From contig JAVBWI010000027.1 of the NCBI GenBank assembly GCA_036677445.1, positions 115,376-179,375 on the forward strand: 64,000 nt of DNA. The letters are read 5' to 3'. Numbering within the stretch: position 1 is the stretch's first letter; each line of letters opens with the position of its first letter. Under the pieces are notes generated by a model, which made no database searches, was not told where the DNA came from, and saw only the letters and a program-made list of their open reading frames with translations. The translations under genes and the position numbers were made by a program. This stretch comes from Clostridia bacterium (GTDB taxonomy: Bacteria > Bacillota > Clostridia > Christensenellales > CAG-138). Positions 39,990-53,380 of the stretch are shown here, one piece after another.

Positions 39990-40345
39990 GCGGACTTTTC
40001 AACAGTAAAAGGCTCCGGTTTTAATACGCCAACGGTACAACGGCCAGCAGCGCCGTTTTCCCCAGCGTCATGTCGAAGAGTTGCGCGGCAAACCTGCGTA
40101 TTCCCTTTCGATCCGCGCAAAAAATAGTATCCCGATGCGTCGGAGCAGACATGCGCAGCTAGAGGCTCGTATTCGAAATTATCATTGCGCTGCCCTATTG
40201 TCAGCAGGTTCTTACTATCCGGAAACGGCGCAGGATGCCCGCATCCACCCCCGCCCAGAATAAGGCATCCGCTAAAAAGCATGCAGAACAGCAGGAGGCA
40301 AGCAAGCTTCAGGAACTTGAAAACACGGGAACGGGGGTTATGCAT
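39990..40345 (-). pseudogene. Probable truncated lipoprotein gene
   Basis: RBS AAGGAG and ATG 40345, lipoprotein signal (FKFLKLACLLLFCMLFSGC). The frame then runs through a terminator and antisense across the 39674 gene, which suggests the real 3' end is lost. Confidence 0.45.
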
Positions 40346-40440
40346 AAAGAGTCTCTCCTTCTGGCGCTGTATATGAATGGCCTTGCAGAGGGACGGGCTG
40401 GATACATCACCAGTATATAGCACACCGTTTATGCGCACAA

Positions 40441-40483
40441 GAAAAAACGGAGCGGAAAGGGATTACCCCCGTGCCGCTCCGTT
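40441..40483 (-). terminator. Terminator closing the phage-like cluster
   Basis: AACGGAGCGG/CCGCTCCGTT stem with a T-tract on the minus strand. Confidence 0.7.
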
Positions 40484-40543
40484 CAAATACTCCGTCGAAC
40501 GTTTTAACCCCATGTTACACGCCCACATGAGAGAGCGCAGACG

Positions 40544-41062
40544 TTATGCGCCCGTCTCACCCCGGCGCAGTAGACGCTTCCGTTTGCGATGCTGGAGGGA
40601 TGCGCTCGCAAACAGGGAAATCAGTATACTCAACGCGGCCGAGGCGAGATAAGTGATGGGCAAGCCGAGAAGATAGAATCCATCCGCATCTCCCTCTGTC
40701 ACAAACAATCCGGAAATTTCCATTCCGGGAGATAACCCCATAATTAATAAATCAATGCCCATATACAGCCAGTACCCGGCAAACACAGCAGCGCCCAAAC
40801 AGACCCATTTGAGTATGACAATTCCCTCCGTATCAAATTTGTCATAAAGGGACGAAAGGCCGCGCTGTTTTCTTAAGCGGCCAGCATACCAAGAAAAGGC
40901 GAAGTATGCCGCAAGCAGACCGAATACGAGTAGCAGCATCAAAAGCGTATCAACTAGATTTCCTTTTCGGGAATTGGAAACAAAAGTCAAAACCAACTGA
41001 GGGATGGCCCAAAGGACTAGTATCACGAACAGTACGACGCGTGCTGCGGTAAGCGGTTTCAT
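40544..41062 (-). CDS. Four-TM membrane protein; candidate immunity protein
   Basis: RBS GGAGGAGG then ATG 41062; four hydrophobic segments; AT-richer than the host; directly downstream of the lysozyme-like effector gene. Confidence 0.7.
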   Translation of the reverse strand: MKPLTAARVVLFVILVLWAIPQLVLTFVSNSRKGNLVDTLLMLLLVFGLLAAYFAFSWYAGRLRKQRGLSSLYDKFDTEGIVILKWVCLGAAVFAGYWLYMGIDLLIMGLSPGMEISGLFVTEGDADGFYLLGLPITYLASAALSILISLFASASLQHRKRKRLLRRGETGA

Positions 41063-41126
41063 AGGCTCCCTCCTCCGAATTGGTAATTCCATATTAGCAT
41101 AATGGAAGGTTAAATGGGAGTCACTA

Positions 41127-42467
41127 TCAATCTAATAGTACATATTTCATGATCTCAGGCATATGCCTATTCATATCCTTTCCATAGGAGTATCCCGATG
41201 CCTCTTCATAGGAGGCGCCCGCCCCAATGTTATATCGGCTGGCGATCGTTGCAATCTGATCCAAAGAAAGCTTATTGGAGGGGATATCCGCAAAATCAAT
41301 TTTCTTCAGGTCTGCAAGATGCTTAGCAGAAATGAAGATGCTGAATTTTGGATTCTGGAGAGCTTTGATGATTTCTTTTTCCATAGTCGTATTTAGAATG
41401 TTTGGGGAAATCCCAAGTGTTTCGGCGGCAACTCTTATCTGCATACTAAGATCGCCAAATGATGTTTTATTAGGGTCCTTGGTAGCATCCCGCCACATAT
41501 CGCTCCACAATCCGCCAATTAATGGAAGGTTGGCAATTTCATCTGGAGTCTTGCCCCAATACTGTTCAGGAATCACTGGTGTTGTTCCCTTTCTAACAAA
41601 GTATGCAGCGGGATCGATCCATGGCGGATCGCCGCCCACTTCGGACCATGCCACACCGGCCAGGAGTTCCACAGGTATATCATATTTTTTCGCGGCGGCT
41701 TTAATAACGTCCCGATAGCCATATACCCACTGATTTTTAAACCCATATAAAAATTGGCTACCTTTATTATAAAGTTTCATATATTGCCACTCTATTGCCA
41801 ATAATGTATTCCAAGGCACATGAGAATTCGTCGGTATATCTTTGTAAGCTGCTTCAATTTCAGTAATCTCATCTTCTAAATGCTGCATGTTCTTGGTAAC
41901 AACTTCTGATTCTTCAAGTGAAGACAAGTTTGATTCGTTAATCTTCGGCTCTTCAAAATTCGATTGCTGACCATATGACGTAGGCACCGGCATAGTTCCC
42001 AATACTAGATCCTGCTCAATGTATGGATTGGCTGCTTCTTCTGTATAAGATCTTGGCATTATAGAAACCATATACTTTTCCTGCGCCTGCTTCTCCTTCG
42101 CGTTGCCATTTCCATTCACTACCATGGCCTGTACTTGCGCAGCTATGCCCGATAGGTCCGCGATAGATTTCTTGTTCTTTACACCGAGGTTTTCTAAATA
42201 CTCCGCATAAGCCACATAAGGATCGCCGCCGCTGAATGAAGCATCCGTCATGCTCAAAATCCCTTTATCTACCTTGTTATCGGATAAAATAAAATCCGGC
42301 ATGTCATTCGTTTGTAAAAGCCTATCTTTATCATAGGCGGTCTGCGTCTTAGGACCCCATATACCATCCACCTTAACGCCCAGCCGTTGCTGCTCTTTGC
42401 GCACATCGTCGGTGCTTTGTATGTACGCAGGAACCCGGGATCTATCCACTATAAATCTGCCCGCCAT
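41127..42467 (-). CDS. Candidate virion-cargo effector: N-terminal PG-binding-like tag and C-terminal lysozyme/lytic-transglycosylase-like domain
   Basis: RBS GGAGG then ATG 42467. N-terminus VRKEQQRLGVKVDGIWGPKTQTAY. C-terminus IKAAAKKYDIPVELLAGVAWSE (SLT-type catalytic Glu helix), TSFGDLSMQIR, LQNPKFSIFISAKHL, ASRYNIG. Confidence 0.7.
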   Translation of the reverse strand: MAGRFIVDRSRVPAYIQSTDDVRKEQQRLGVKVDGIWGPKTQTAYDKDRLLQTNDMPDFILSDNKVDKGILSMTDASFSGGDPYVAYAEYLENLGVKNKKSIADLSGIAAQVQAMVVNGNGNAKEKQAQEKYMVSIMPRSYTEEAANPYIEQDLVLGTMPVPTSYGQQSNFEEPKINESNLSSLEESEVVTKNMQHLEDEITEIEAAYKDIPTNSHVPWNTLLAIEWQYMKLYNKGSQFLYGFKNQWVYGYRDVIKAAAKKYDIPVELLAGVAWSEVGGDPPWIDPAAYFVRKGTTPVIPEQYWGKTPDEIANLPLIGGLWSDMWRDATKDPNKTSFGDLSMQIRVAAETLGISPNILNTTMEKEIIKALQNPKFSIFISAKHLADLKKIDFADIPSNKLSLDQIATIASRYNIGAGASYEEASGYSYGKDMNRHMPEIMKYVLLD

Positions 42468-42582
42468 TATAATTGCCCCCTCCATATCATTTGTGTGATG
42501 CATGGGTTCGCTCGCCATGTTTGGGGAACACCCTAACCTGACGCATTTATCCATTGCGCGTGCGGGGTCTTCTTCAAAGCCG

Positions 42583-42660
42583 CGGGTCATTGACAAACCC
42601 TGCGTTTTAACCCACAAAAATTCCGCTGACAAAGTCTTTTGGACTTTGTCAGCGGCTTGA
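42583..42660. mobile_element. Short MITE-like repeat (family 1b)
   Basis: Hairpin CCGCTGACAAAGTC..GACTTTGTCAGCGG, homologous to the ends at ~61889 and ~62877. Confidence 0.6.
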
Positions 42661-42691
42661 AAAAGTGGATGCATCCGCTTATTCAGCAGGT

Positions 42692-43543
42692 TTACGCGCC
42701 CGGATAGATCGCCTGTACCTGCAAATAGCCTGCTTCGCCCAGGCTGGCGATCAGCTCGTCGCGGTAGACGCGGTCCTGCGCCGTCGCGCCTTTATATATA
42801 TTGCCGCGCTGCGCGCCCGTAAGGCCCGCCAAAAACCGCATGCAGTTTTCCGGTGTGGTGATGCGCGCATATTCCTTGGCGCTGCCGCCGGATTTCTTTT
42901 GCGCCGCCTGCAGCTGCGCGATATAGTCCGCATACGCGCTCTGCGCGGTGGAAAACGCGAGCTGTCTCGTCTCTGCCTGCCGATTGGCGTTATACATCTG
43001 CACCTCCAGCGCGCGCGCCCGCTCCCGCTCTACGGCCTCCATCAAAAGCTGCGCCAGCGTGGCGGAATACTGCGCCTCCATCTGCGCGATGTCGTCCGCC
43101 TCCGCGTCCATCTGCCTGTCCTTCATGTCGGTCACATAGGTGCTTCTGCCCATGCCGCGCGCCCACGCGTCCGCGTCCAGCTCGGCGCGATTTTCCTCGG
43201 TCAACTCCTTGCGCCGTTCGATGGCCTGGTCCACGCCGGGGCGCAGGCTGCTTGCAAGCTGTGCCCGCAGGGACGCCGTGGATTGCGGCGTGTAAGAAAG
43301 GGCGGGCGTCTGCAGCAGCGACTGTATGCCCTGCATGAATGCGCCCAGGCCGCCCGTCAACTGGCTGACTGCCGTAGCGGGCCCCTGCTGCGCCTGATAC
43401 GCCGCCTGTGATTTCGGGCCCCATACGCCGTCCACCTGAAGGCTCGCGCCCTGCGCGTTGAGCTGCCGCTGCAGGCGACGGACCCCCTCACCGTCGGTCA
43501 CGCCCACAGGCGGCGTGTAACCCGGGATAAAATAGCCTGTCAT
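42692..43543 (-). CDS. Putative internal virion/ejection-like protein with N-terminal PG-binding-like domain
   Basis: VRRLQRQLNAQGASLQVDGVWGPKSQAAY; Ala/Gln-rich helical body with an AWARGMGRS motif reminiscent of podovirus ejection proteins; lies after the nozzle gene. Confidence 0.6.
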   Translation of the reverse strand: MTGYFIPGYTPPVGVTDGEGVRRLQRQLNAQGASLQVDGVWGPKSQAAYQAQQGPATAVSQLTGGLGAFMQGIQSLLQTPALSYTPQSTASLRAQLASSLRPGVDQAIERRKELTEENRAELDADAWARGMGRSTYVTDMKDRQMDAEADDIAQMEAQYSATLAQLLMEAVERERARALEVQMYNANRQAETRQLAFSTAQSAYADYIAQLQAAQKKSGGSAKEYARITTPENCMRFLAGLTGAQRGNIYKGATAQDRVYRDELIASLGEAGYLQVQAIYPGA

Positions 43544-43554
43544 ACTTTCCTCCT

Positions 43555-44208
43555 TTACCCGCCGTAGCCTGCAAGCAGCTCGTCAGCATACCGGTCAAGC
43601 TCTTCTTCAAGATACGCTTCCCACGTTTTCTCTTCATCGATCTCGGCCTCGATAGCGCCCGGCACATCGTCGTCCTCGTCCGACCTACGCCGGAAGGCCG
43701 CGCCTTCAAAGCCCGGCACGCGGGAGCCGGGCTTTAGGCCCGTCACGCTGCTGGGCGTGTAGCCAAGCATATTTCCATACGAATCAAACGCCTTCGCATA
43801 CTTGGCAAACTGCCAGCCGTTGCCGATATCGTAATACATGCCGTTGGGGCTGATCTTCGCGCCCATCGGGTAATAGAACCCGTCCTCGCGCAGCAGCGCG
43901 CCGTAATCCGTGTAAGCGCGCCCGTCGCTGCCGCGGTATACGTTGCCGGTATATCCGCTGATATGGGTGTATACGGGCGGCGCGGCGGATGCGCCCGAAC
44001 CCCTGCCGGTTGTGCCGCCGGACGTACCGCCGCCCTGCATGCCGGTATACGCCTTGTACGGGTCCGCGCCCGCGCCGTAAAGCGCGTCCAGCGCCGCCTG
44101 GGATTTATTCCCCCACGCACCGTCCATTTTGACGCCCAGCGTTTGCTGCAGCGCGCGCACCTCCGTGGTGGAAAGCCCCGGTACGCGGTAATCGCTTCTT
44201 ACTGCCAT
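43555..44208 (-). CDS. Putative virion-associated protein with N-terminal PG-binding-like domain, Gly-rich linker and acidic tail
   Basis: VRALQQTLGVKMDGAWGNKSQAAL; RBS AAGGAGG; inside the cluster. Confidence 0.6.
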   Translation of the reverse strand: MAVRSDYRVPGLSTTEVRALQQTLGVKMDGAWGNKSQAALDALYGAGADPYKAYTGMQGGGTSGGTTGRGSGASAAPPVYTHISGYTGNVYRGSDGRAYTDYGALLREDGFYYPMGAKISPNGMYYDIGNGWQFAKYAKAFDSYGNMLGYTPSSVTGLKPGSRVPGFEGAAFRRRSDEDDDVPGAIEAEIDEEKTWEAYLEEELDRYADELLAGYGG

Positions 44209-44290
44209 TTGGTATCCTCCTTATTTGGGATGGCCTGCAGCCACTTCTCCGGTTCCAAGGCCCCTTTGCAGCGGAACCTGATAGCACAGG

Positions 44291-44476
44291 CTATCCATTC
44301 TGCAGTTGTTCCTCCATCTCCAGCAGCTTCTGATAGAGTATGGAAAAGTTCTGGTTCAGGTTGTTTTCATTCTGGGCGACCTGCGTGTCGTATTCCTCGG
44401 GGCTTGCCTCCTTATCCATGCGCCGGAGCAGCAGTACGGGGAAAAGCGCCTGTACGCCGGTGGGAATGTACGCCAT
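44291..44476 (-). CDS. Small coiled-coil phage structural-type protein (61 aa)
   Basis: RBS AAGGAG then ATG 44476; NENNLNQNFSILYQKLLEMEEQL helix; follows the nozzle gene. Confidence 0.6.
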   Translation of the reverse strand: MAYIPTGVQALFPVLLLRRMDKEASPEEYDTQVAQNENNLNQNFSILYQKLLEMEEQLQNG

Positions 44477-44515
44477 GCTGCATTCTCCTTTCTTGTTAAA
44501 TGACATCCGGCAATG

Positions 44516-45997
44516 CTAAAGCGCGCGCAGACGGTGCTCGAATACCATTTGTACGCCGCCCAGTATGCGGAAGCGGGAGCCCGCCTCGTTGGAAAAGCGG
44601 AAGGCGAATGTGCGCCCCTCGTTGCGAAGCGGTATTTCCAGCACGTCTTCCTCCCGTTCCGGCATCAGGCAGCGGTAATTATGGAGGTTCCGGCCGATGC
44701 GGGCGTCCAGCAGCAGCACCGCGCCCTCTCCGGCGCTCTCCCCCGCGCCGCGTATATACATCTCCTGCAGGCACTTGATGCCGGGCTTGCTGCCCAAATC
44801 CGTCAGCGGCGTGTGCCAGTAGGCGTCGATGGGCGCGCCGTCGTAATCCGGCCCCTCGTCAAAGCGGTATACGGTGCGCGCTTCGTTGATAAGGTAGAGC
44901 GTACCGTCGTGCGCGCAGATGTCGGATACCGTAAAGCCGCGCCGCAGCATATAAGCTTGCCGCGCCGTATCGTAAACGATCAGCGCGTTGTCCGCCGTAC
45001 GGGCGGCGCCCGCACCGCTTTGGTCGCGGCTTTGTTCATATGCGGTGAAAATGAGCTTTTCGCCCAGCTTGGCGGCGCGGCAGTTGGTGAAGGACGCCCC
45101 TTCGAGGAAGCCGCGTATGCGCCGCGCGCTGCGGCTTCTAAGAGCCGTCTGCCCGTCGAAGTAATACAGCCCCGCGCCGGTCATCCAGTAGGGCACGTCG
45201 CCGTAGAGTACCCGCGCGGTGTTCTGCATCTGCTCCACCTCGGCATACACGCGGTACACGCGGAAATTGCCCGGCCTGTCGCCCAGCAGCCGGTAAACGG
45301 AGCGGCGCTTGAATATCAAAAGCTGGTTGGAAAGCGCGCACAGCCCCGTAATGGGGTCGCCTGAGGTATCGCCCACCTCCACATGCCCGCCGCCAGTGTT
45401 TTCGCTCGCCTCGTCCACTGCCCAGCTTTCGATCGTCCGCTCGTCCCCCGGGGCCTGGCTCCAGTACAGTCGGCAGGGGTGCGCAGGGTCGCCCGCGGAA
45501 AACAGGCGGCCGTAATGCATGGCAAGGAAGTTGACGGAAATGTTGGAAAGCTTCGCTTCGCTGCCGAACGCCTGCATGGCGTTTATGCCGTCCCATTTGA
45601 CGATTGCGTGTTCGCCGCAGGCAAGAAGCAGGTAGTCGGCGCTGCCGATCTGCGTCTCGCAGGCGTCAAAGCGCAGGCCCTTCACCGTTTCGGGGTAAGA
45701 GAACAGCAGCGTCCACGCGGGGGCCTCGTCGGTGATGACATACGCGTATACGTCGTTGCCCGCGATGGCGAGAAAGCGCTCGCTCACCAGCCCCTGCCAG
45801 TGCAGGAGCTTCCGTATGGGCTTTTCCCCCGGCACCGCCGCCGCGATATGCTTCACATACCCGCGCGCCACGGCAAGGCTGCCGTCGGCGGTATCCATAT
45901 TGCAGGCGTCGGGGCTGCTGCCCGGTTCTATCGCGCCCTCCTGCGCGCTTTGGTCGATGCCCAGGAATGCGGGTATGCGGTACTCGGCCACGGCCAT
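44516..45997 (-). CDS. Podovirus-type tail nozzle/stabilization protein (P22 gp10 / T7 gp12-like beta-propeller)
   Basis: ~493 aa and beta-rich; N-terminal FLGIDQS...SPDACNMD..DGSL..ARGY; YGRLF..GD...P.RLYWS; GDPITGL...NQLLIFKRRSVYRL.GD. Position after the adaptor gene fits. Confidence 0.72.
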   Translation of the reverse strand: MAVAEYRIPAFLGIDQSAQEGAIEPGSSPDACNMDTADGSLAVARGYVKHIAAAVPGEKPIRKLLHWQGLVSERFLAIAGNDVYAYVITDEAPAWTLLFSYPETVKGLRFDACETQIGSADYLLLACGEHAIVKWDGINAMQAFGSEAKLSNISVNFLAMHYGRLFSAGDPAHPCRLYWSQAPGDERTIESWAVDEASENTGGGHVEVGDTSGDPITGLCALSNQLLIFKRRSVYRLLGDRPGNFRVYRVYAEVEQMQNTARVLYGDVPYWMTGAGLYYFDGQTALRSRSARRIRGFLEGASFTNCRAAKLGEKLIFTAYEQSRDQSGAGAARTADNALIVYDTARQAYMLRRGFTVSDICAHDGTLYLINEARTVYRFDEGPDYDGAPIDAYWHTPLTDLGSKPGIKCLQEMYIRGAGESAGEGAVLLLDARIGRNLHNYRCLMPEREEDVLEIPLRNEGRTFAFRFSNEAGSRFRILGGVQMVFEHRLRAL

Positions 45998-46001
45998 ATT
46001 C

Positions 46002-46544
46002 TCACCACCTGTTCTCGAACCGGTAGCGGTCCGGCTCGCCCAAAGCGGCGCGCAGGCTGCGCTTGCCCGCGTTGTACAGCTCGAAATACACGTTTGCCCC
46101 GCGCTGCATGGCAGGGTCGGCGCTCGCGCGCTCGCGCGCCACCACATAGGTTACGATCATGCCGTGGCAGAAGTCGGGCAGCTCCGGCACGTCGGTGGGG
46201 GAGCTCATATCATCGGGCAGGTAGCGGTAGTGAACGAGCACCGCGCCGTCGTCGCACAGCACGCGCACGCGCGTGCTGGAAGGCCCGGTGATAAAGGGCA
46301 CGCGCGCCATGCCGCGGGATACGGAAAGCACCTTGGCGCAGCAGCGCGGCAGCTCCGCGATATCCGCAATACCGCCGGAAACATTGAGCGGGTCGCTGCG
46401 GCGAAGCTGCAGAACGGTCGCAAGGTCCGTTACGGCTTCGTTGGCGTAACGGGTCAGCTTGTCACGCCAGGTATCCACCGTCTGGCTGTCGTGGCCGCGG
46501 TCAAGCTGCGCCAAAGCGGAGACGATGATATCGTTGAGCGTCAT
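46002..46544 (-). CDS. Head-tail adaptor (P22 gp4 / tail tubular A-like)
   Basis: MTLNDII..AL..L.........L.RYANEA..DL..; V.YRYLP.DM....DVPELPD..H..IVTYV; synteny after the capsid gene. Confidence 0.7.
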   Translation of the reverse strand: MTLNDIIVSALAQLDRGHDSQTVDTWRDKLTRYANEAVTDLATVLQLRRSDPLNVSGGIADIAELPRCCAKVLSVSRGMARVPFITGPSSTRVRVLCDDGAVLVHYRYLPDDMSSPTDVPELPDFCHGMIVTYVVARERASADPAMQRGANVYFELYNAGKRSLRAALGEPDRYRFENRW

Positions 46545-46549
46545 GCCCC

Positions 46550-46825
46550 TCACCCGACCTTTTTACCGCGCCCGCGGTAGGCGCGCACCTTCTCTTCGCT
46601 TTCCACACGCACGCGGGCGCTCTGGGCGATGAGCGCGGCGAGGCTTTGCGGAAGCGCCACCTCCACGCCGGTCTTGATGCGGAAGAAGTGGCCGTTGATG
46701 CCGCCCTCCCAGTAGCCGCCCAGGTTATCCGGCGATATGGTAACGCGGACTTTGGGCTCGGATTGCAGCGCCGCGCCGGTATCCGAGGCGAGGCGGTCGA
46801 TCTGCTGTTCGGTTAAGTAATTCAT
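46550..46825 (-). CDS. Small phage head-associated hypothetical protein
   Basis: 91 aa; PKVRVTI...GGINGHFFRIKTGVEVALPQSLA, a pattern I associate with proteins encoded right after N4-gp56-type capsids; RBS AGAGGAG. Confidence 0.65.
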   Translation of the reverse strand: MNYLTEQQIDRLASDTGAALQSEPKVRVTISPDNLGGYWEGGINGHFFRIKTGVEVALPQSLAALIAQSARVRVESEEKVRAYRGRGKKVG

Positions 46826-46844
46826 ATATTTTCTCCTCTCATGT

Positions 46845-47230
46845 TTTCGAGAAAGTGCCTTGCGGCACTTTCTCGAGGTTCACCGTGCAAGTCGTCGCTC
46901 GGTTTCCTGCTTACGCAGGAAAGCTGTCGCGCCAACTTGCGCTTCAAGGTGTCATTTTGCACCGTACATGCCGCTGCAAAATGACGGATTGAAAGCCTCC
47001 GGGGGCAGGCCCCCGAAGCCCCTGGGGGGTATTTACTCAACGCAGCCCTGCATTCCCCTATACGGCTTCCAATCGTCAAAACGGATGACATGCGCATCCG
47101 TTTTGACACCTTGCACGGCCGCCGCCCGGGGAATGCCGCAGCATTCCTAGGCGGCCGTGTGGAATCCGTCCCAATGCGCTGATGCGCATTGGGACGACCT
47201 CAGAAAAATGGCCAACGCCATTTTTCTGAC
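46845..47230. mobile_element. Composite MITE-like repeat (family 1) inside the phage-like cluster
   Basis: End hairpins TCGAGAAAGTGCC..GGCACTTTCTCGA and TCAGAAAAATGG..CCATTTTTCTGA; core shared with ~38760-38865. Confidence 0.7.
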
Positions 47231-48465
47231 TATGCGCTTACACTGTGCTCGATGCGTACCACCCACAGCGGGTTGAGTATGGTGGCGGTGTAGGCCGCGA
47301 CCTTTGCGCCCACCGTACCGCGCTGGTCAAGCGGATCGGCCGCGCCGGCGCTGCCGGGGCGTTTGACGATGGTCTGCAGCGTGCCGGAGCCCATCACGTC
47401 CACCACGCCGTAGGAATCAGCGCCGAACACCAGCGTGGCGTGGATATCCAGCCCCGCTTTGGTGGTGTCGTCCAGAGCGCCCGCGTCCTCGCTGTACACC
47501 AGCGTGTCCGCGGCAATGGCGGAGGCGACGACAACGGAAAGCGTAATGGTATTGGCCGCCTGGCTGACGCCGGCGACAGCGTATTCCGTACTGCCGATCC
47601 TGATCTTCGCGCCCTCCTGCGAAAGGTAAGCGCGGGCGGCGTCGGAAATGCCGTCCACCACCACGTCCGCGCTGCCCGCGGCGTGGCTTGCGACGGCGGT
47701 CAGCACGCTCTGGCGGTACACCTTTGTTTCGGTGCTTTCCACAAACACCACGCCGAACAGGCGGCCGATCTCGCCGGAATAGATCTGCTCCGCGTTAGAG
47801 TATTTGGAGACGTCCTGCCACAGGCTGTCGCTCTGCAGGTCATAGGTGGCCTCCGGCGAGCAGATGCAGATAAAGTGCGGCTTGCGCGCCTCGCCCTTTT
47901 CGTTGGCGGTGAAATGGCGCGCCTTGGCCTTTTTGAGCGTCCGTACGGCCTTTCGCACCTCGGAAACGCTCAGCTTGTCGTTCACGGTGACCTGCAGGCG
48001 GGACGTACGGCCGCCCGCATACTGTACGTTGGTGCCGGCGCACATGGCGTCGCGGGTGATCCACTCCACTACGGTGCCCAACTGCTCGCCCAAGAGCTCC
48101 GCGCTGTCGGATACCACCTCGTCGTAGGCGGTCGCTTCCAGAACATCCGAGATCTCCACATACGCGCCGTACTGCGCGACCTCGGCCTCCACCCTGCTTT
48201 GGGAGAGAGACTGCCCTTCCGGCGTTACGCCTTCCATGAGCGGGGCGGCGGCCAGTTCCGGCGAAAACAGGTCGTAGCGCCGGAACTCCACGCGCTTGCC
48301 GTTGTTGCGCGGTATGGAGCGCTTCTGGCCGAATTTGGCGAATACCAGCTTGGTGCGCGCGGTCTCCAGCAGCTTTTTGTCGTAGAAGTTTTTGTTGAGG
48401 TACGTCTGGCTGCCGCCGCCCGGAAGGGCCGCGGCGGTGTTGATGGTGGTTTGTGTATTGGACAT
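47230..48465 (-). CDS. Major capsid protein, N4-gp56 family (HK97 fold)
   Basis: FYDKKLLE.A...LVF.KFGQKRSIPRNNGK.VEFRRY, PLMEGVTP.G, QYGAYVEISD, GEIGRLFGVVFVES, FGADSYG, DPLDQRGTVGAK; RBS AAGGAGG. Confidence 0.9.
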   Translation of the reverse strand: MSNTQTTINTAAALPGGGSQTYLNKNFYDKKLLETARTKLVFAKFGQKRSIPRNNGKRVEFRRYDLFSPELAAAPLMEGVTPEGQSLSQSRVEAEVAQYGAYVEISDVLEATAYDEVVSDSAELLGEQLGTVVEWITRDAMCAGTNVQYAGGRTSRLQVTVNDKLSVSEVRKAVRTLKKAKARHFTANEKGEARKPHFICICSPEATYDLQSDSLWQDVSKYSNAEQIYSGEIGRLFGVVFVESTETKVYRQSVLTAVASHAAGSADVVVDGISDAARAYLSQEGAKIRIGSTEYAVAGVSQAANTITLSVVVASAIAADTLVYSEDAGALDDTTKAGLDIHATLVFGADSYGVVDVMGSGTLQTIVKRPGSAGAADPLDQRGTVGAKVAAYTATILNPLWVVRIEHSVSA

Positions 48466-48483
48466 ATGCTTCCTCCTTATGTA

Positions 48484-48725
48484 TTATCAAAAAAGCGGCA
48501 TCCGCCGCTTTTTTGAGTTTCCACATGCAGGTTCGCTCACCGCTCACCTGCGACCTTTGTTTGTCGCCGTAGGCGACATCGGTGGTGCCCGAAGGGTGCC
48601 TGCAAGGTGTCATTTCTGACGCACCTGTCGTCAGAAATGACGGATTTTATGGTTTCTCCGATATTTTACGCAAGTGGGGCGGCGGAGCGCCCCGCTACGT
48701 GGGCCTTTGATGGGTTCTCAGGCGC
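48484..48725. mobile_element. MITE-like repeat (family 1) between the scaffold and capsid genes
   Basis: TCAAAAAAGCGG..CCGCTTTTTTGAGTTTC end (compare ~59443) and AAGGTGTCATTT..AAATGACGGATT module (compare ~46946 and ~38806). Confidence 0.65.
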
Positions 48726-48743
48726 GTTACGCTTCCACATTCT

Positions 48744-49265
48744 TTACAGCTTGACCTTTACGCCCCGGCGGGCCTTTTCGCGGTATTCGTGCTCCAGCTT
48801 CGCGAACTCCTCCGGCGACATGGAAAGGTAGTCCCGCGCAGGCGCCGCGGCGGTGTCCGCGCGGGCGGCGCGGGGCAGCCCTTCGCGCGCGCGAAGGCGG
48901 GTGACGATGGCCTGCATGGCGTTGCGCTCCGCCTCGGCGGCGCGCTTTTCCGCCTGGTATACGCGTACGGCGGCGTAGGCGGGCATCTCGATTACCAGCC
49001 GCACAAAAGCCGGGTCCTGTACGGCGGCTTCCAGGTCGAAATCCTCGGGCAGCAGGTTCTGCTGCAGCAGTGCGTCGATCTCGCGCTTGAGGCTCTCCGG
49101 GTCAAGGGCGCGGGCATTGCCCGCGGGGGGCGGCGCAGGCTGCGCGGGCATGCGCCCGGGCATTGCGCCCGCGGGCATACCGTCCGCGGGCGCGGCGGGC
49201 GCCAGGCCTGCCTGCGGCGTATATTCGAATGCGCTCTCGGGGAAACGGGTAAATTTCTCTTTCAT
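48744..49265 (-). CDS. Putative capsid scaffolding protein
   Basis: Lies between portal and capsid; Pro/Ala-rich N-terminus, helical core and C-terminal DYLSMSPEEFAKL..RRG.KVKL tail typical of scaffolds; RBS AAGGAGG. Confidence 0.65.
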   Translation of the reverse strand: MKEKFTRFPESAFEYTPQAGLAPAAPADGMPAGAMPGRMPAQPAPPPAGNARALDPESLKREIDALLQQNLLPEDFDLEAAVQDPAFVRLVIEMPAYAAVRVYQAEKRAAEAERNAMQAIVTRLRAREGLPRAARADTAAAPARDYLSMSPEEFAKLEHEYREKARRGVKVKL

Positions 49266-49301
49266 AAGCTCCTCCTTTTTCTTTGTGGGTCGTATGTGGT
49301 T

Positions 49302-49313
49302 GAACGGTGGTTC
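49302..49313. promoter_or_regulatory. Possible LexA (Cheo) box between portal and scaffold
   Basis: GAAC-GGTG-GTTC in a 56-bp intergenic gap. Confidence 0.35.
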
Positions 49314-49321
49314 TTAACGGG

Positions 49322-51019
49322 TTAGTTGGCCGCCCGCTTTGCGCGCGCGCCGCCCCGCGGGGCCATCAGCCGTTTTACGCGCGCCGCTATGCCGCCTCCG
49401 CCGCCGGTTTCCCCCGCGGGCCCATTGGGGGCGGCCGGGCCGCTCTGCGGCGGGGCGGCCGCAGGCTGCTCCGCCTCATCTGCGCGCTTGGCCTGTCTTA
49501 GCACCTGCTCCTTGCCGTCGAAGTGCATCAGCTCTACCGCCTGGTCGGGGCGGAGTACGCCAAGCTGTATCATCTGCAGCACCAGCTCGTTCTGGCTGAT
49601 GACACTCCAGCGGTTCTCCTTCTGCACCTTGATGGATATGGAAAACTCGACGGGCAGGCTGCGTCCGTCGGGCAGCGCGCGGGTGAGCATGCTTCCGTCG
49701 AAAACGCGCCGCTGCACCTGCCCGTCCATGGCGACGGAAACGACGCGCGGCAAGAGGTTAAACTCGCGTTCCACCTCGATTTCCATGCGCACGGCGTCGC
49801 GATAGGCCTCGTGCATCTGCCGGGAGGCCATGCGCGCGCGTTTGCTGCTCATTTCCTGCAGCGCCGCGATGGCGGAGGCCGCCGTGATGCCGCCCGCCGT
49901 CCCCCCGCGGGAAAAGTCGTTCGCTCCGCTTTCTTCCTTAATGGATTCGAGCATGCCTCGGATGTACTGCATGATGTACGAGGGCAGCGGCGGCGTGGCG
50001 AACCAGCTCACGCCGTTGAGGCTTTCGCCCGTGTGCACCTCCTTCGCCCAGTCGCGCAGGTCATCCGCGTCAAAGCCGCTCGCCTCGGTGATGAGCAGCT
50101 TGTTGTGCGAGGCCATCAGCGCGTTTTTGAGCACGATCTGGTCCAGCTTGTCGGCGTACTGCTGCTGCGCCGCAAACATGTCCACAAGGCCCAGCCCCAG
50201 CGGGCTTCCTTTGCGCGTGAATAGCGGCGTCACGATAAACGGGTACTGCCCGTTGGAAAAATAGCCTTGCGGCTTCAGCTCCCGGCTGTCCAACAGCACC
50301 TGCCCGCCCGCAAGCTGCGCCATGTGCACGCGGCAGCCGCCGGTTTTTTCGTCGTACTCGCGCCACCAGTATTCCAGCAGGAGCGCGGTCTTGGTGCGGT
50401 CGGCGGTGAGGAGTGAATCCTCCATCACGGATTGCTGCGCATACCCGTCCGAATCCCCGTCATAAGCGGGGAAGCGGGCGGACAGCCACTCGCGCGTGCG
50501 CACCGCGAACTTGAACACCGCGCGTCCGTCCTGAATATCTGTGCACAGCGGGTCGAAGAGTACGCCGCGATTGTCCGCGTGGCGAATGAACGCGCCGCCC
50601 AATCCGTTGTTGAGCGCGGGGTCATAGCCTACCTCCTGCACCATGTAGCCGCCCACGAGCAGGTCGTGCACCAGACGCCGGTATTCGCGCTCGTAGCAGG
50701 CGGCGTCGTGGTTCTGGCGGATCACCGCCTCCAGCACACGGGCGGCCGCCGTATCCTCCGGCGTTTCGGGCGAGATCACCGCCTCCGGCAGCGAATCCAT
50801 CAGGTCCGCCGCGATGTTCTCCACCGTGCTCTGTATTACGGGGGTCACGGGGCGCGGCTCGTTGGGGTCGCCTTGCGGAATGTCGTGCCAATGGTCGCCG
50901 CAGTACATGCGCTCGGCATGCTCCAGCCGCCGCCACTCGCCCGCGTAGGCGGCGCGGAATTCCTCGAACAGCGCGTACGCGCGGGCGCGCAGCGCATCCC
51001 GGCCTTCTTTTTGGTTCAT
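49322..51019 (-). CDS. Phage portal protein (P22-like podovirus type)
   Basis: 565 aa; W......RMYCGDHW......PRPVTPVIQSTVE, P.TPED...ARVL, LFDP, YPFI..P, N..SRG....G.TAASAI.ALQE; first gene of the cluster. Confidence 0.85.
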   Translation of the reverse strand: MNQKEGRDALRARAYALFEEFRAAYAGEWRRLEHAERMYCGDHWHDIPQGDPNEPRPVTPVIQSTVENIAADLMDSLPEAVISPETPEDTAAARVLEAVIRQNHDAACYEREYRRLVHDLLVGGYMVQEVGYDPALNNGLGGAFIRHADNRGVLFDPLCTDIQDGRAVFKFAVRTREWLSARFPAYDGDSDGYAQQSVMEDSLLTADRTKTALLLEYWWREYDEKTGGCRVHMAQLAGGQVLLDSRELKPQGYFSNGQYPFIVTPLFTRKGSPLGLGLVDMFAAQQQYADKLDQIVLKNALMASHNKLLITEASGFDADDLRDWAKEVHTGESLNGVSWFATPPLPSYIMQYIRGMLESIKEESGANDFSRGGTAGGITAASAIAALQEMSSKRARMASRQMHEAYRDAVRMEIEVEREFNLLPRVVSVAMDGQVQRRVFDGSMLTRALPDGRSLPVEFSISIKVQKENRWSVISQNELVLQMIQLGVLRPDQAVELMHFDGKEQVLRQAKRADEAEQPAAAPPQSGPAAPNGPAGETGGGGGIAARVKRLMAPRGGARAKRAAN

Positions 51020-51194: not shown

Positions 51195-52535
51195 CTAATG
51201 CATTACAAGCTCCCACGGGCAAACGAATTCTTTGCCGTCCAGGTAGAAAAGCGGCGAATCCTGTGAAAAATGCAGCGCCAGCCTGTAAGCAAGCAGCGCC
51301 TGCCTGCGCCTGTGCGCGGCCTTGTTCGCTGCGCGGTCGCCGTATTTGTCGTCGCCCAGCACGGGGTGGCCGGTATGCGAGAGATGCGCCCTGATCTGGT
51401 GCGTGCGGCCGGTGTACAGCCGCACTTCCAATAAGCTCTGTTCGCCGTCCGTTTCCAGTACGCGATAGCCGGTTTTGATGAGCAGCGCGCCGGGCGAGGG
51501 GGAATCGAACACATACAGCCTGCCCGCTTCCGCATCCTTTTTCGCCCAGGCTTCCAATATAGCCTCCTGCCGCTGCATGCGGCCCAGAACGATGCAGCGG
51601 TAGTACTTCTCGATACGCTGCTCCTTTATCGCCGCGGCCAGATCCCGCTCCGCCTCCGGCGTGCGCGCGAAAAGCAGCAGGCCTTCGGTGTTCGCGTCCA
51701 GCCGGTGTACGGGGTACAGCGCGCCAAAGTATGGTTCCAGCCTTGCCTGCAGGGAGTCTTTTCCGCCGTCCGCCGCTGTAACCTCAACGCCCGCGCGCTT
51801 TGCCACGACGAGCAGGTTTTCATCCGCATATACGACGTCACTGGCATCCTGCACAGGCAGCGCTGTGATTTGTGTGGAAAAAGGCGCGAACGCGCCGCCA
51901 TGCGGCAGGGAAAAGAACTGCATGCGCTCCTTTTTCGTGGGATGCTCGAATGCGAGCGAATATGCCCACAGCGCAATCTGTCCGCGCGCGGGCGAAGGAT
52001 GGTAACGCTGGTCAAAACGGATGGGCCAGCCGTGCGCGGCCAGCTGCGCGCGGATCTGGTGCTTGCGGCCGGTCAGCAGCGCAATGTCAAGCAGCGCATA
52101 CGCCCCTTCGCGCGCGAGAACCTGATAGCGCAGTACGGCCTGCCTGGCTTCCGGCGCGGGGTCGGGGGATACCTCCACCCGCAGCGCGCCTTCTGTATCG
52201 CGGATATAGTCGGTAAGCTCGCCGGATGGGGGGATATCCCCCTCCACTACTGCGGCATAGCGCTTTTGTGCCTGTCGAAGAGCAAACTGCGCAGAAAGCC
52301 GCGCCGCCGCCTTGCTGGTGCGCGCGAACACCATTGCGCCGCCCACGGGTCTATCCAGCCGGTGGCACAGGCCAAGGTATACCGCGCCCGGCTTGTTATA
52401 TTTTTCTTTGATATAGGCTTTGAGTATGGAAAGAAGATCCTCGTCGCCCGAAGAATCCGCCTGTACCGGCGTGTTCGCGGGCTTTTCCACAACCAGGATA
52501 TGATTGTCCTCGTACAAAATGGGGGGTACGCTCAC
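51195..52535 (-). CDS. RluA-family pseudouridine synthase with two tandem catalytic domains
   Basis: Domain 1: VVEKP, HRLDRPVGG, TGRKHQIR. Domain 2: VVAKRAG, HRLDANTEG, TGRTHQIR, HPVLGDDKYG. Confidence 0.9.
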   Translation of the reverse strand: MSVPPILYEDNHILVVEKPANTPVQADSSGDEDLLSILKAYIKEKYNKPGAVYLGLCHRLDRPVGGAMVFARTSKAAARLSAQFALRQAQKRYAAVVEGDIPPSGELTDYIRDTEGALRVEVSPDPAPEARQAVLRYQVLAREGAYALLDIALLTGRKHQIRAQLAAHGWPIRFDQRYHPSPARGQIALWAYSLAFEHPTKKERMQFFSLPHGGAFAPFSTQITALPVQDASDVVYADENLLVVAKRAGVEVTAADGGKDSLQARLEPYFGALYPVHRLDANTEGLLLFARTPEAERDLAAAIKEQRIEKYYRCIVLGRMQRQEAILEAWAKKDAEAGRLYVFDSPSPGALLIKTGYRVLETDGEQSLLEVRLYTGRTHQIRAHLSHTGHPVLGDDKYGDRAANKAAHRRRQALLAYRLALHFSQDSPLFYLDGKEFVCPWELVMH

Positions 52536-53380
52536 AGCCACCACGCCCTCCCCGATGCGCCGCAGGGCAGCGTAAGCTCCCCGCGCTCAATGGGCAGGCC
52601 GACTTCATCGGATTCCACCCTCGCGCCGCGGCCAGATAAAGCCACAGTAAGCACATTTTTCAGCACGCTGGGCGCCAGGCCCGTCGTGTAGGAATTGATC
52701 AGAAAAAACAGCGGCGTATCCGAAAGCAGCTTTACCGCCGCATCCACCAGAGGGTAAAGATCCTGCTCGATCTTCCACATCTCGCCGTCCGGCCCGCGGC
52801 CGTAGCTGGGCGGGTCCATCAATATGCCGTCGTAGCGGTTGCCGCGCCGCTGCTCCCGCAGTACGAATTTCATTACGTCGTCCACCAGAAAGCGTACGGG
52901 TGCATCCTGCATGCCGCTTGCCGCAAGGTTGTCCTTCGCCCAGGCGGTCATGCCTTTAGCCGCGTCCACATGCGCCACCTGCGCGCCCGCTTTGGCGCAG
53001 GCGCAGGTAGCGCCCCCCGTGTAGGCGAACAGGTTCAATACCTTTGCGCCGGGGCGCCGGTCAAGAAGCGACCGCATCCAGTCCCAATTCACGGCCTGTT
53101 CGGGGAACAGCCCCGTATGCTTGAAGCCCGTTGGCCGCACGAGGAATGTAAGGTCGCGGTAGCGTATGCGCCAGCCTTCGGGGAGCGTCCGCCTATATTC
53201 CCAATGCCCGCCGCCTGTGCTGGAGCGGATATAATGCGCATCCGGCGCGGACTCCGTCCGCAGGGGCCATACGGCCTGCGGATCGGGGCGCAGCAGGGTA
53301 AACTTGCCCCAGCGTTCCAGCTTTTCGCCGCCGCCCGCGTCAAGCAGCGCATAATCCTCCCAGCCGTCTGCCAGATACAT
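52532..53380 (-). CDS. Class I SAM-dependent methyltransferase (RlmI/RlmK-like)
   Basis: FKHTGLFPEQ, VLNLFAYTGGAT, DPPSYGRG. Confidence 0.9.
   Translation of the reverse strand: MYLADGWEDYALLDAGGGEKLERWGKFTLLRPDPQAVWPLRTESAPDAHYIRSSTGGGHWEYRRTLPEGWRIRYRDLTFLVRPTGFKHTGLFPEQAVNWDWMRSLLDRRPGAKVLNLFAYTGGATCACAKAGAQVAHVDAAKGMTAWAKDNLAASGMQDAPVRFLVDDVMKFVLREQRRGNRYDGILMDPPSYGRGPDGEMWKIEQDLYPLVDAAVKLLSDTPLFFLINSYTTGLAPSVLKNVLTVALSGRGARVESDEVGLPIERGELTLPCGASGRAWWL

Follow-up and report, generated by a model that had tools for sequence, protein, structure and literature searches.

The analysed window, a stretch of 64,000 nt from contig JAVBWI010000027.1 of a Clostridia bacterium, carries three consecutive ORFs on the minus strand, referred to here as A (43555–44208), B (42692–43543) and C (41127–42467). 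In all three, a module of about 50 aa, which we call the tag, is located at residue 1, directly after the Met. The features of the locus are the following:

49322–51019, minus strand: portal protein (P22/SU10 type), first particle gene of the locus (PF16510, PF23899)
47230–48465, minus strand: major capsid protein of the N4-gp56 family (TIGR04387, 261.8 bits against a cut-off of 60; phrog_1357)
46002–46553, minus strand: SU10-type head-to-tail adaptor (PF24175, 39.8 bits against a cut-off of 27)
44516–46147, minus strand: nozzle-like virion protein, 543 aa (phrog_3287, phrog_511; conserved synteny)
44291–44506, minus strand: p71, small conserved post-nozzle protein, untagged, lying between the nozzle and A/B in most of 39 loci
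43555–44208, minus strand: protein A, 217 aa, with tag, Gly-rich linker, conserved beta-rich core and acidic tail
44053–44208, minus strand: tag of A, residues 1–52 (alignments; HMM domain score 69 bits; Shine-Dalgarno before ATG 44208)
42692–43543, minus strand: protein B, 283 aa, with tag and predicted long helical hairpin (helices 89–128 and 135–217)
43373–43543, minus strand: tag of B, residues 1–57, with a 5-aa insertion within the loop (alignments; AlphaFold2)
42623–42655, minus strand: hairpin with a 14-bp stem in the gap between B and C, resembling an intrinsic terminator, tail AATTTTTGTG (best-ranked site of the scan)
42312–42467, minus strand: tag of C, residues 1–52 (alignments; HMM domain score 79 bits; Shine-Dalgarno GGAGGGGG before ATG 42467)
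41130–41909, minus strand: lysozyme-like/lytic-transglycosylase-like domain of C, residues ~187–446, conserved Glu in AWSEVGG
40544–41092, minus strand: membrane protein of 182 aa located 3′ of C, with hydrophobic segments within residues 10–167 (maximum KD19 2.62, 37 windows >1.6)

Shine-Dalgarno sequences were detected 7–9 nt 5′ of ATG 44208, 43543 and 42467. An alternative longer ORF for C starts at 42674, but it would have to cross the strong terminator hairpin at 42623–42655, and thus 42467 is the likely start. The N-termini of A, B and C showed 40–44% identity to each other across about 55 aa, with 13 invariant columns, and phmmer cross-matches between the three proteins arose from the tags only, the bodies being unrelated. 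The original prediction, which had described three consecutive proteins with the same N-terminal tag followed by unrelated bodies and had assumed this start for C, was therefore right on these points. It had also proposed scanning with an HMM of the three N-termini, and this HMM alone retrieved three further copies in the 3.4-Mb genome (E 1.6e-14, 1.5e-12 and 6.4e-5), all of them N-terminal, in proteins denoted by D, E and F. With a six-member HMM, the six tags scored 66–86 bits per domain, and the best single domain among the canonical PG_binding_1 proteins of the same genome scored 17 bits.

No signal peptide or membrane helix was found in any tagged protein (KD19 maxima of 0.13, 0.84 and 0.95 for A, B and C, with zero windows >1.6), which fits release via a particle or via lysis. 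The missing signal peptide does not set tagged proteins apart, as 8 of 13 canonical PG_binding_1 ORFs of the genome, with starts roughly called, also have no N-terminal hydrophobic stretch.

The genes of A, B and C belong to a podovirus-like, domesticated element that resembles FpGTA, a podovirus-like gene transfer agent described in Faecalibacterium (PMC12946183, Nat Commun 2026). The gene order is portal, scaffold-like, capsid, p91, adaptor, nozzle, p71, A and B, followed by C after the terminator. The position after the nozzle gene of a podovirus-like particle is as originally described, whereas the statement that all ejectosome-position proteins carry the tag was too broad, since p71 is untagged and C is a strain-variable add-on, present only in the window among the sampled loci. 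A match to p71 was missing in 4 of the 39 loci (L043, L064, L068 and L069). The portal gene has no adjoining terminase, its upstream gene encoding a pseudouridine synthase; the TerL orthologue is on another contig (G000:C17:74490-76088), where a second locus includes TerL, D, NlpC/P60, BppU_N and amidase genes. D, at G000:C17:86599-87174, is a paralogue of A. The two particle loci together account for 4 of the 6 tagged genes in the genome. The remaining two, E and F, are among ordinary host genes, and their bodies were beside particle genes in none of the fetched loci. Neither E nor F has an export signal or a link to particle genes, which counts against an anchoring role of their tags in a wall.

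The capsid gene was detected in 131 of the 151 genomes of the bacterial family and in 46 of 50 genera, mostly with one match each. The element is flanked by host core genes, which vary from genus to genus, and in 4 loci with annotated flanks neither an integrase nor a replication gene turned up. The element shares with FpGTA a vertical, near-universal presence within the taxon, with host-gene flanks and no replication or lysogeny genes seen in those 4 loci, an operon with N4-gp56 capsid, portal, adaptor and nozzle, and a second locus with BppU-like fibre and lysis genes. Its genes also follow the FpGTA order, in which TerL and portal are succeeded by a small protein, capsid, two genes, nozzle, one gene and the last gene, but TerL is on another contig in this genome, and any packaging of DNA by the element is putative. 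In other members of the element, NlpC/P60 and holin genes follow B or a BppU-like gene. A search of viral contigs with the nozzle protein alone confirmed zero related loci.

On the profile comparisons, the tag is an autonomous mini-domain derived from PG_binding_1 (PF01471), a resemblance that had been noted originally and that was upheld here. The alignment by hhalign of 23 tags with 19 canonical PG_binding_1 domains from the same genome gave a probability of 96.7% (E 3.4e-10), matching tag columns 17–46 to domain columns 27–56, i.e. helix 2, loop and helix 3 only. Of the domain, the tag retains helix 2, the D-G-hydrophobic-W-G loop and helix 3, roughly two thirds in all; in place of helix 1 it has an extended cap, Y-Y-x-x-G-Y-T-P-P-x-G-V, which packs on the loop. 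Against PDB, the tag profile matched 15 sequences at E <= 1 (best 7rum_A, E 4.6e-5), 11 of which are named as peptidoglycan-acting or -binding proteins, namely endolysins, L,D-transpeptidases, spore cortex-lytic enzymes and a DD-carboxypeptidase. Unlike canonical copies, single tags are below the PF01471 gathering threshold of 23 bits (B 17.2, C 16.5, E 19.9 and F 19.8, with zero match for A), whereas multi-tag proteins exceed it (76 bits for P0015 and 67.7 bits for P0016). The best 150 matches of a profile search against 1.84 billion proteins were mostly canonical PG_binding_1 proteins with multiple repeats.

The loop, D-G-[VIA]-W-G-[PNK]-K-[ST], is present once per tag (D-G-A-W-G-N-K-S in A, D-G-V-W-G-P-K-S in B and D-G-I-W-G-P-K-T in C) and follows the D-G-hydrophobic-aromatic-G-x-x-T pattern of PG_binding_1, with Trp where most canonical copies carry Phe or Val. 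It also fits the consensus D-G-(Pho)2-G-K/N-G/N-T that PMC3352856 reports for experimentally confirmed N-terminal binding domains of KZ144-type endolysins. AlphaFold2 predicted the tag of B, with high confidence (pLDDT 81–95 for residues 1–50), as a folded unit with its own N-terminal cap, in which the N-terminal strand is bridged to residue 41 and is accompanied by helices 18–30 and 43–52; the modelled tag is hence two helices plus a strand rather than a three-helix bundle. Like PG_binding_1, and as fits a wall-binding repeat, the tag is found alone or in tandem arrays, which reach 6 copies per protein (L008), and the body of this 6-copy protein matched that of the single-tag protein E (E 1.5e-8). 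The aromatic-x-(V/I)P stretch that had been described as a segment ahead of the tag was indeed present, but it is a part of the module and not a separate element; it also precedes the internal copies of the L008 array. The first copy of the tag starts at residue 1–4 in 29/29 loci of relatives and in all 6 proteins of the window genome. An invariable position of the first copy at residue 1 in these 29 loci is not something required of a generic wall-binding repeat.

Within the bacterial family, 63 of 151 genomes have the tag, compared with 0 of 300 from other families, so that, among the genomes searched, it is limited to one family, which is not the case for PG_binding_1. It spans 23 genera, with its start position kept and frames intact, apart from one stop in one of about 150 listed matches. 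Among tagged orthologues of B, mean identity was highest in the tag (66%), lower in the body (47%) and lowest in the C-terminus (34%), and 14 tag residues were invariant in 24 sequences (the window and 23 relatives). The body of B was present without a tag in 20/20 sampled tag-negative genomes sharing the portal, capsid and nozzle genes, and the capsid tree implies at least 3 switches between the tagged and the tagless state. Genera with sampled tagless B had zero tag matches (g17 0/8, g19 0/5, g20 0/8, g30 0/8 and g31 0/7), and the N-termini of some tagless B proteins resemble decayed tags. B is the sole tagged protein in many genomes, e.g. those of genus g27 except G118 and most of g32; several tagged proteins alongside a tagged B were also found within the same genomes. 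In the clade nearest to the window, 8/8 loci have a tagged orthologue of A together with a tagged B.

B, the last gene of the conserved operon, was kept in 19/20 and 20/20 sampled loci, 5 of the latter set being rearranged in order, and encodes a conserved post-nozzle protein with a predicted long helical hairpin. Since B persists tagless in many lineages, the tag appears dispensable for its belonging to the particle, and any anchoring role would be non-essential. Foldseek with the B model found zero PDB matches at E <= 0.001; the alpha-pore-forming toxins in the top rows (E 0.35–0.4) were taken as generic helical hairpins, and the match to gp14 is inside the range that helical hairpins attain by chance. 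In BFVD, there was one match (E 7.1e-4), an uncharacterised protein of an uncultured podovirus. A search of viral contigs with the B alignment yielded 8 loci, all of the same element, with B tagged in 3 of them, and the B profile had zero matches in 299 genomes of other families. As the B profile and the tag had no match outside the family in the genomes searched, the last-gene products of FpGTA and of the window are not detectably related; cluster accessions also gave no link between B homologues and FpGTA RCH50844.1. In purified FpGTA particles, RCH50844.1, encoded at the position of B, ranks third in abundance, with 914 spectra compared with 20 for the nozzle (Table S2 of PMC12946183). Given this abundance and the scarcity of the nozzle, we ranked a P22 gp26-like tail needle low as an identity for B.

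Neither A, nor D, E and F, belonged to any PHROG or NCBIfam family, A also had no Pfam family, and its body had zero usable matches in the protein atlas. C, past the terminator, is its own transcription unit with a GC content of 47% vs ~60% around it. It has a lysozyme-like/lytic-transglycosylase-like fold with a conserved Glu. Its family profile had 0 matches among PDB sequences, and a linker of ~150 aa was modelled with low confidence. One homologue of C has canonical PG_binding_1 and PG_binding_3 at the equivalent N-terminal place and another has two tags; the catalytic domain was also found behind other N-terminal heads, one of which presumably resembles DUF4157. Some strains lack the C cassette or carry a decaying form of it.

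The best reading, to which we give about an even chance, is that the tag serves particle-borne proteins of the ejected type as an accessory anchor in peptidoglycan. We infer that the module binds peptidoglycan and that A, B and C reside in particles and are ejected; the motif, its homology to PG_binding_1, its position, its repetition, its gain and loss and the fold of C are shown by the data. A, B and, in this strain, also C would be carried by the particle and exit via the nozzle; the N-terminal module would then bind the thick peptidoglycan of the target cell and keep the proteins in the wall, where the helical hairpin of B might build or lengthen a conduit and the transglycosylase-like domain of C might locally cleave glycan strands, with the module acting as an accessory avidity or anchoring device. 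As the module is without one helix of the canonical bundle, it might have lost peptidoglycan binding.

To our knowledge, almost nothing is known about how short-tailed phages or phage-like particles traverse the thick wall of single-membrane bacteria. Here, a whole bacterial family has a podovirus-like, FpGTA-like element whose post-nozzle proteins are often headed by a compact derivative of a wall-binding domain. If this module anchors ejected proteins in peptidoglycan, it offers a testable handle on the wall passage of the particles and a wall-binding unit of 50 aa, smaller than the canonical domain. The element also provides candidate genes for the GTA-like DNA packaging reported in Christensenellaceae genomes, for which the relevant passage of the 2026 paper names no gene cluster (PMC12946183).

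The genes of A, B and C resemble those of T7 gp14–16-type ejection proteins in their place after the nozzle gene, with p71 between, but the three proteins have no sequence homology to gp14, gp15 and gp16, and they have no membrane helices, unlike gp14 and gp16 homologues. According to the sections on ejection proteins in a review, gp14-like proteins have a hydrophobic helix, which B does not have, genes for ejection proteins have not turned up in phi29-like podoviruses infecting Gram-positive bacteria, and no wall-binding head on such proteins is described there (PMC8954989).

It is unlikely, in our view, that the module targets the wall from the producer side at lysis, as in KZ144, with C and the membrane protein forming an extra lysis cassette and A and B helping lysis or release. 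C does have the attached peptidoglycan glycosidase-like domain, and KZ144, EL188 and OBPgp279, endolysins of phages of Gram-negative hosts, likewise combine an N-terminal binding domain with a C-terminal lysozyme-like domain. A protein with several hydrophobic segments comes after C, C is a transcription unit of its own, NlpC/P60 and holin genes follow B or a BppU-like gene in other members, and endolysins, too, have no signal peptides. However, those endolysins have a full binding domain, whereas C has a cut-down module, a linker of ~150 aa that is unusual for endolysins and a place at the end of a structural locus. B, with its long helical hairpin, is conserved within the structural operon, where it follows immediately on nozzle and p71, a place not typical of lysis genes; NlpC/P60 and amidase genes are already at the second locus, and C is absent in some strains.

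Capsid loading or portal docking, the other function offered by the original prediction, would require that scaffold, portal or shell reads the tag as a signal that sends unrelated proteins into the particle, and we regard it as quite unlikely. N-terminal addressing signals of particle cargo are found in the T4 capsid-targeting sequence, the payload signals of contractile injection systems and MuF-fused toxins. The tag resembles these as an N-terminal module common to unrelated bodies beside particle genes, and its strictly N-terminal place (residue 1–4), the concentration of tagged genes at the two particle loci, the missing signal peptides, its being the best conserved part of tagged B, the tag-free genera with tagless B and the other heads of the C catalytic domain are all consistent with loading. 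Yet the tag is a folded, repeatable domain whose sole detectable homology is to peptidoglycan-binding domains, and up to 6 internal tandem copies are unexpected for an address label. With B tagless in 20/20 sampled tag-negative genomes whose particle genes (portal, capsid and nozzle) are the same, a tag state that switched at least 3 times, and E and F away from particle genes in all fetched loci, this function is disfavoured as the main one, and the cell-wall anchor, the second of the two functions first suggested, fits the evidence better. We see little probability for a related reading, in which a recycled wall-binding fold serves the GTA-like particle as an address or docking label specific to the family, and tagged proteins, including the strain-variable C and the orphans E and F encoded far from the particle loci, are cargo delivered with DNA; if it were true, the particle would double as a protein-injection device whose payloads could be listed from sequence alone.

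It is very improbable that cut-down domains pair with each other, so that tagged B would bring tagged A, C, D, E and F along into or onto the particle. The absent first helix could expose a surface that needs filling, and several tagged proteins occur with a tagged B per genome, including A in all 8 loci of the nearest clade; but B is the single tagged protein in many genomes (g27 except G118, most of g32), and its tag is predicted by AlphaFold2 as a closed, capped unit. Spread of a merely tolerated tag among neighbours by duplication or recombination, with no common function, could account for tag gain and loss on B, for the decayed-looking N-termini and for the unstable C cassette, but is the least credible, given the 14 invariant residues, a tag more conserved than the body, and starts and frames intact across 23 genera with one stop in ~150 listed matches.

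The membrane protein of 182 aa located 3′ of C had zero Pfam, PHROG or NCBIfam family and is possibly a holin or an immunity partner; it was deleted jointly with C in one contig of run X8. The hairpin between B and C also matched many other contigs in the metagenome runs, and thus it is a repeat.

The minus strand of the window carries a compact series of particle genes, from the portal through C, plus a membrane protein. A, B and C are the three consecutive proteins behind the nozzle and p71 genes, and a Shine-Dalgarno sequence was found ahead of the ATG of each, which puts their common motif at residue 1.

49322-51019, minus strand, portal of the P22/SU10 type
after the portal, minus strand, scaffold-like protein, 173 aa
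47230-48465, minus strand, major capsid protein, N4-gp56 family
ahead of the SU10-type adaptor, minus strand, p91, a 91-aa protein
between p91 and the nozzle-like protein, minus strand, SU10-type adaptor
ahead of p71, minus strand, nozzle-like protein, 543 aa
between the nozzle-like protein and A, minus strand, p71, 71 aa
43555-44208, minus strand, A, 217 aa
42692-43543, minus strand, B, 283 aa
42623-42655, minus strand, terminator hairpin (14-bp stem, T-rich tail) between B and C
41127-42467, minus strand, C, 446 aa
40544-41092, minus strand, membrane protein behind C, 182 aa

The common N-terminal tag that had been proposed for A, B and C proved genuine, as these regions share 40-44% identity and 13 of the aligned columns do not vary. 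A profile built from these three N-termini alone and scanned over the genome (3.4 Mb), as the original prediction had proposed, recovered three further copies (E 1.6e-14, 1.5e-12 and 6.4e-5), all of them N-terminal in their ORFs and all on another contig, C17:

C17:86599-87174, D, a full-length paralogue of A
C17:282921-284291, E, 456 aa
C17:28404-29876, F, 483 aa

With a profile of all six members, the six tags scored 66-86 bits, whereas the top single domain of any canonical PG_binding_1 protein of the same genome reached 17 bits. Since the profile finds D, E and F and separates the tags so widely from the canonical domains, the tag is, as judged from sequence, a distinct and tight sub-family rather than a chance resemblance.

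The likeness to the peptidoglycan-binding domain PG_binding_1 was also confirmed. Matches to Pfam PF01471 were below threshold for B (17.2 bits) and C (16.5 bits), and A had no PF01471 match; proteins with more than one tag exceeded the threshold. When 23 tags were compared at profile level with the genome's 19 canonical PG_binding_1 domains, the match had a probability of 96.7% (E 3.4e-10). It pairs tag columns 17-46 with domain columns 27-56, which cover helix two, the D-G-x-x-G loop and helix three. Among sequences from solved structures, the tag profile matched 15 chains at E <= 1, 11 of which are named as peptidoglycan-acting or -binding proteins, the top one being the endolysin 7rum_A (E 4.6e-5). 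In the AlphaFold2 model of B, computed with 23 orthologues, residues 1-50 were at pLDDT 81-95 and formed a short strand at the N-terminus, bridged to residue 41, and two helices, 18-30 and 43-52. From the alignment and this model, the tag is about two thirds of a PG_binding_1 domain, with a cap, Y-Y-x-x-G-Y-T-P-P-x-G-V, in place of the first helix. The aromatic-x-(V/I)P segment previously noticed ahead of the tag corresponds to this cap and belongs to the module. The tag loop, D-G-[VIA]-W-G-[PNK]-K-[ST], agrees with D-G-(Pho)2-G-K/N-G/N-T, given as the consensus of the N-terminal binding domains of KZ144-type endolysins, whose binding was demonstrated by GFP fusions (PMC3352856).

The tag was detected in 63 of 151 genomes of the same family, CAG-138, covering 23 of 50 genera (E <= 1e-6), and in none of 300 genomes representing 76 further families of the class (E <= 1e-8). 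It also recurs inside proteins, as in a 549-aa protein of L008 with six copies, each capped, whose body is related to that of E. In 29 of 29 loci of relatives, its first copy began within three residues of a Shine-Dalgarno-led ATG.

The capsid gene was found in 131 of the 151 family genomes (46 of 50 genera), as a single match in most, and full-length matches to the conserved element were 55-86% identical, with a few divergent ones at 36-49%. Apart from a few rearrangements, the genes around it keep one order: TerL, portal, scaffold-like, capsid, p91, adaptor, nozzle, p71, (A), B. The portal of the window has ordinary host genes on its upstream side (pseudouridine synthase, methyltransferase and an LPG-synthase-like protein), and the locus has a 2'-5' RNA ligase-like gene and addB on its downstream side, the latter two names being read off the translations. 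In four fully annotated loci, host core genes stand on either side, and which ones they are varies with the genus, for example KsgA, IleS and FtsH, rpoA with rplQ, or RsmI with a MatE transporter. The TerL orthologue of this genome lies on a separate contig (C17:74490-76088), near D and genes for an amidase, an NlpC/P60 protein and a BppU_N fibre-like protein. Conserved order, host-gene flanks and the placement of TerL, D, lysis and fibre genes elsewhere together are the pattern of a domesticated, split, GTA-like element derived from a podovirus, to which window 40544-51019 and the second particle locus, C17:74490-96000 (L001), belong.

Several minor features of these loci were recorded. The pseudouridine synthase adjoining the portal (51195-52544) is long, at 449 aa, and its C-terminal half matched phrog_9266, a phage family of unknown function (E 5.6e-54). 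At L043 (G035:C30:59468-79467), the sporulation gene spoIVA is wedged between the TerL-portal pair and the remaining particle genes, and rpoA and rplQ lie directly beside the cluster; here the element is broken up and fixed among core genes. L038 (G078:C2:326228-346227) is a more phage-like relative with a TerS gene upstream, in which tagged B is followed by a 2340-aa LPD3-domain protein, a BppU_N protein, a BclA_C-like fibre and a PG_binding_1 protein; the branch leading to its capsid is long (0.87). On the plus strand, two paralogous surface proteins flank D (L001 8283-9419 and 10236-11627); both have a hydrophobic tail and a sorting-signal-like PKTGD motif at the end, which points to an envelope with a single membrane and sortase-dependent anchoring.

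Capsid genes related to this one, at about 40-44% identity, occur throughout other families of the class (11/11, 7/7 and 10/10 genomes), and the B profile had no match outside the family in the class-level genome search. In one of these families (11/11 genomes, e.g. G343:C2:20439-21380), the capsid matched as two adjacent pieces in different frames or ORFs, corresponding to query residues of about 7-253 and 333-408 with the intervening part absent; the cause may be an insertion, a frameshift or a split gene.

The element itself is of a kind already published. According to that report (PMC12946183, January 2026), the gene transfer agent FpGTA of Faecalibacterium forms podovirus-like particles about 40 nm in size and has TerS, TerL, portal, scaffold and N4-gp56-family capsid in its 10.5-kb operon I, and a BppU-like fibre, a receptor-binding protein, holin and endolysin in operon II. 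By its genes, the family element matches this description, and particle genes of the present type could be behind the GTA-like packaging that the report mentions for Christensenellaceae (PMC12946183). Five genes after the FpGTA capsid, the position of B, lies RCH50844.1 ('TolA'), the third most abundant protein in purified particles, at 914 spectra, compared with 1321 (portal), 1226 (capsid) and 20 (nozzle) (PMC12946183, Table S2, as far as available). The two share gene position, but no relationship was detected, either with the B profile, which had no match outside the family, or through cluster accessions. The main text of the FpGTA paper does not contain 'TolA', 'peptidoglycan', 'nozzle' or 'internal virion', and its available parts make no mention of a post-nozzle protein function or a wall-binding head (PMC12946183). 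No description of such a head on ejection, virion or GTA proteins was found in the accessible portions of the open-access literature and bioRxiv.

The conserved operon ends with B. Its tag leads into a low-complexity linker, after which the AlphaFold2 model (mean pLDDT 83.6) places a long helical hairpin (helices 89-128 and 135-217); the structural likeness of this hairpin to gp14 may be a hint only, as helical hairpins reach such Z by chance. The B body (profile positions about 40-290) was retained in all 20 loci examined from capsid-positive, tag-negative genomes, its N-terminus being short and either basic or rich in Gly where other B proteins have the tag (L056-L075). In a quick maximum-likelihood capsid tree of 39 proteins, picked by tag state (19 from loci with tagged B and 20 with tagless B), that state changed at least 3 times, against a mean of 13.4 for label shuffles, and the all-tagged clade of 8 holding the window was nested among tagless relatives with 98% SH-aLRT support. 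Given the retained body and these changes of state, the particle machine probably continues with or without a tag on B. A few tagless N-termini resemble decayed tags, e.g. M-G-S-Y-Y-G-A-G-T-K-P-P...D-L-G-V-K. Remnants of the tag pattern (Y-Y-G-x-G-T-K-P-P, I-G-Q-x-D-L-G-V/I) were seen in several tagless B, as if the tag had decayed in place.

A combines a conserved core rich in beta structure with an acidic tail; no known family was found for it, and it is present and tagged in 8/8 loci of the clade nearest the window. C is a strain-variable add-on together with its membrane partner, since at the other 39 element loci compared it was never seen behind B, and it is deleted in some metagenome contigs from other studies. 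In a contig of run X8, 40482-42366 is missing, which takes away the membrane gene and C from codon 34 on; 58 other letters stand between 40481 and 42367, and only 33 codons remain at the start of C. X4 contains this junction as a minor form. A contig of X5 is without 40981-41632, and 465 other letters replace 40081-40531. A and B were covered in the runs with these deletions. The C region has 47% GC, against about 60% in its surroundings. Homologues of C carry other heads, one with two tandem tags and one with canonical PG_binding_1 plus PG_binding_3, and others are tagless.

It is well supported that the tag derives from a peptidoglycan-binding domain, folds, can be repeated and is specific to the family, that it heads post-nozzle proteins of a GTA-like, podovirus-derived particle, and that it is accessory, not essential, for the conserved member B. 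We give about even credence to a joint reading in which the tag would still bind peptidoglycan, while A, B and C would ride in the particle, exit via the nozzle and be held by their N-terminal tags in the wall of the target cell; so held, B might form or extend a conduit and C might cut glycan strands. A producer-side, endolysin-like role of the tagged proteins, for which C makes the strongest case, is unlikely. No signal peptide or membrane helix was found in the six tagged proteins of the genome. This absence does not by itself separate the readings, because 8 of 13 canonical PG_binding_1 ORFs of the genome, with starts called roughly, are likewise without an N-terminal hydrophobic stretch. 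Slightly less probable still is a label for loading into the capsid; four of the six tagged genes are at the two particle loci, E and F lie among host genes (P-type ATPase, flavodoxin-like protein, fumarase; PEP carboxykinase), and their bodies adjoin particle genes in none of the fetched loci. Assembly through tag-tag contacts seems improbable. That the tags share no function we consider the least credible, the tag being the most conserved part of tagged B (66% mean identity, against 47% in the body and 34% in the C-terminus).

Two further observations concern C and its surroundings. In the C family (P0004-P0014, L021:1280-2758), the same transglycosylase-like domain stands behind different heads or none, one head resembling what we take to be DUF4157, and the tagged relative in L021 (1280-2758) shares the central region of C with a Gly-zipper-like hydrophobic tail in place of the enzyme; by analogy, its modular build seems to resemble that of polymorphic toxins. 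The hairpin after B (42623-42656) matched many unrelated contigs in four metagenome runs, with a summed depth of 193 in X4 against about 44 around it, and looks like a dispersed repeat, not merely a local terminator.
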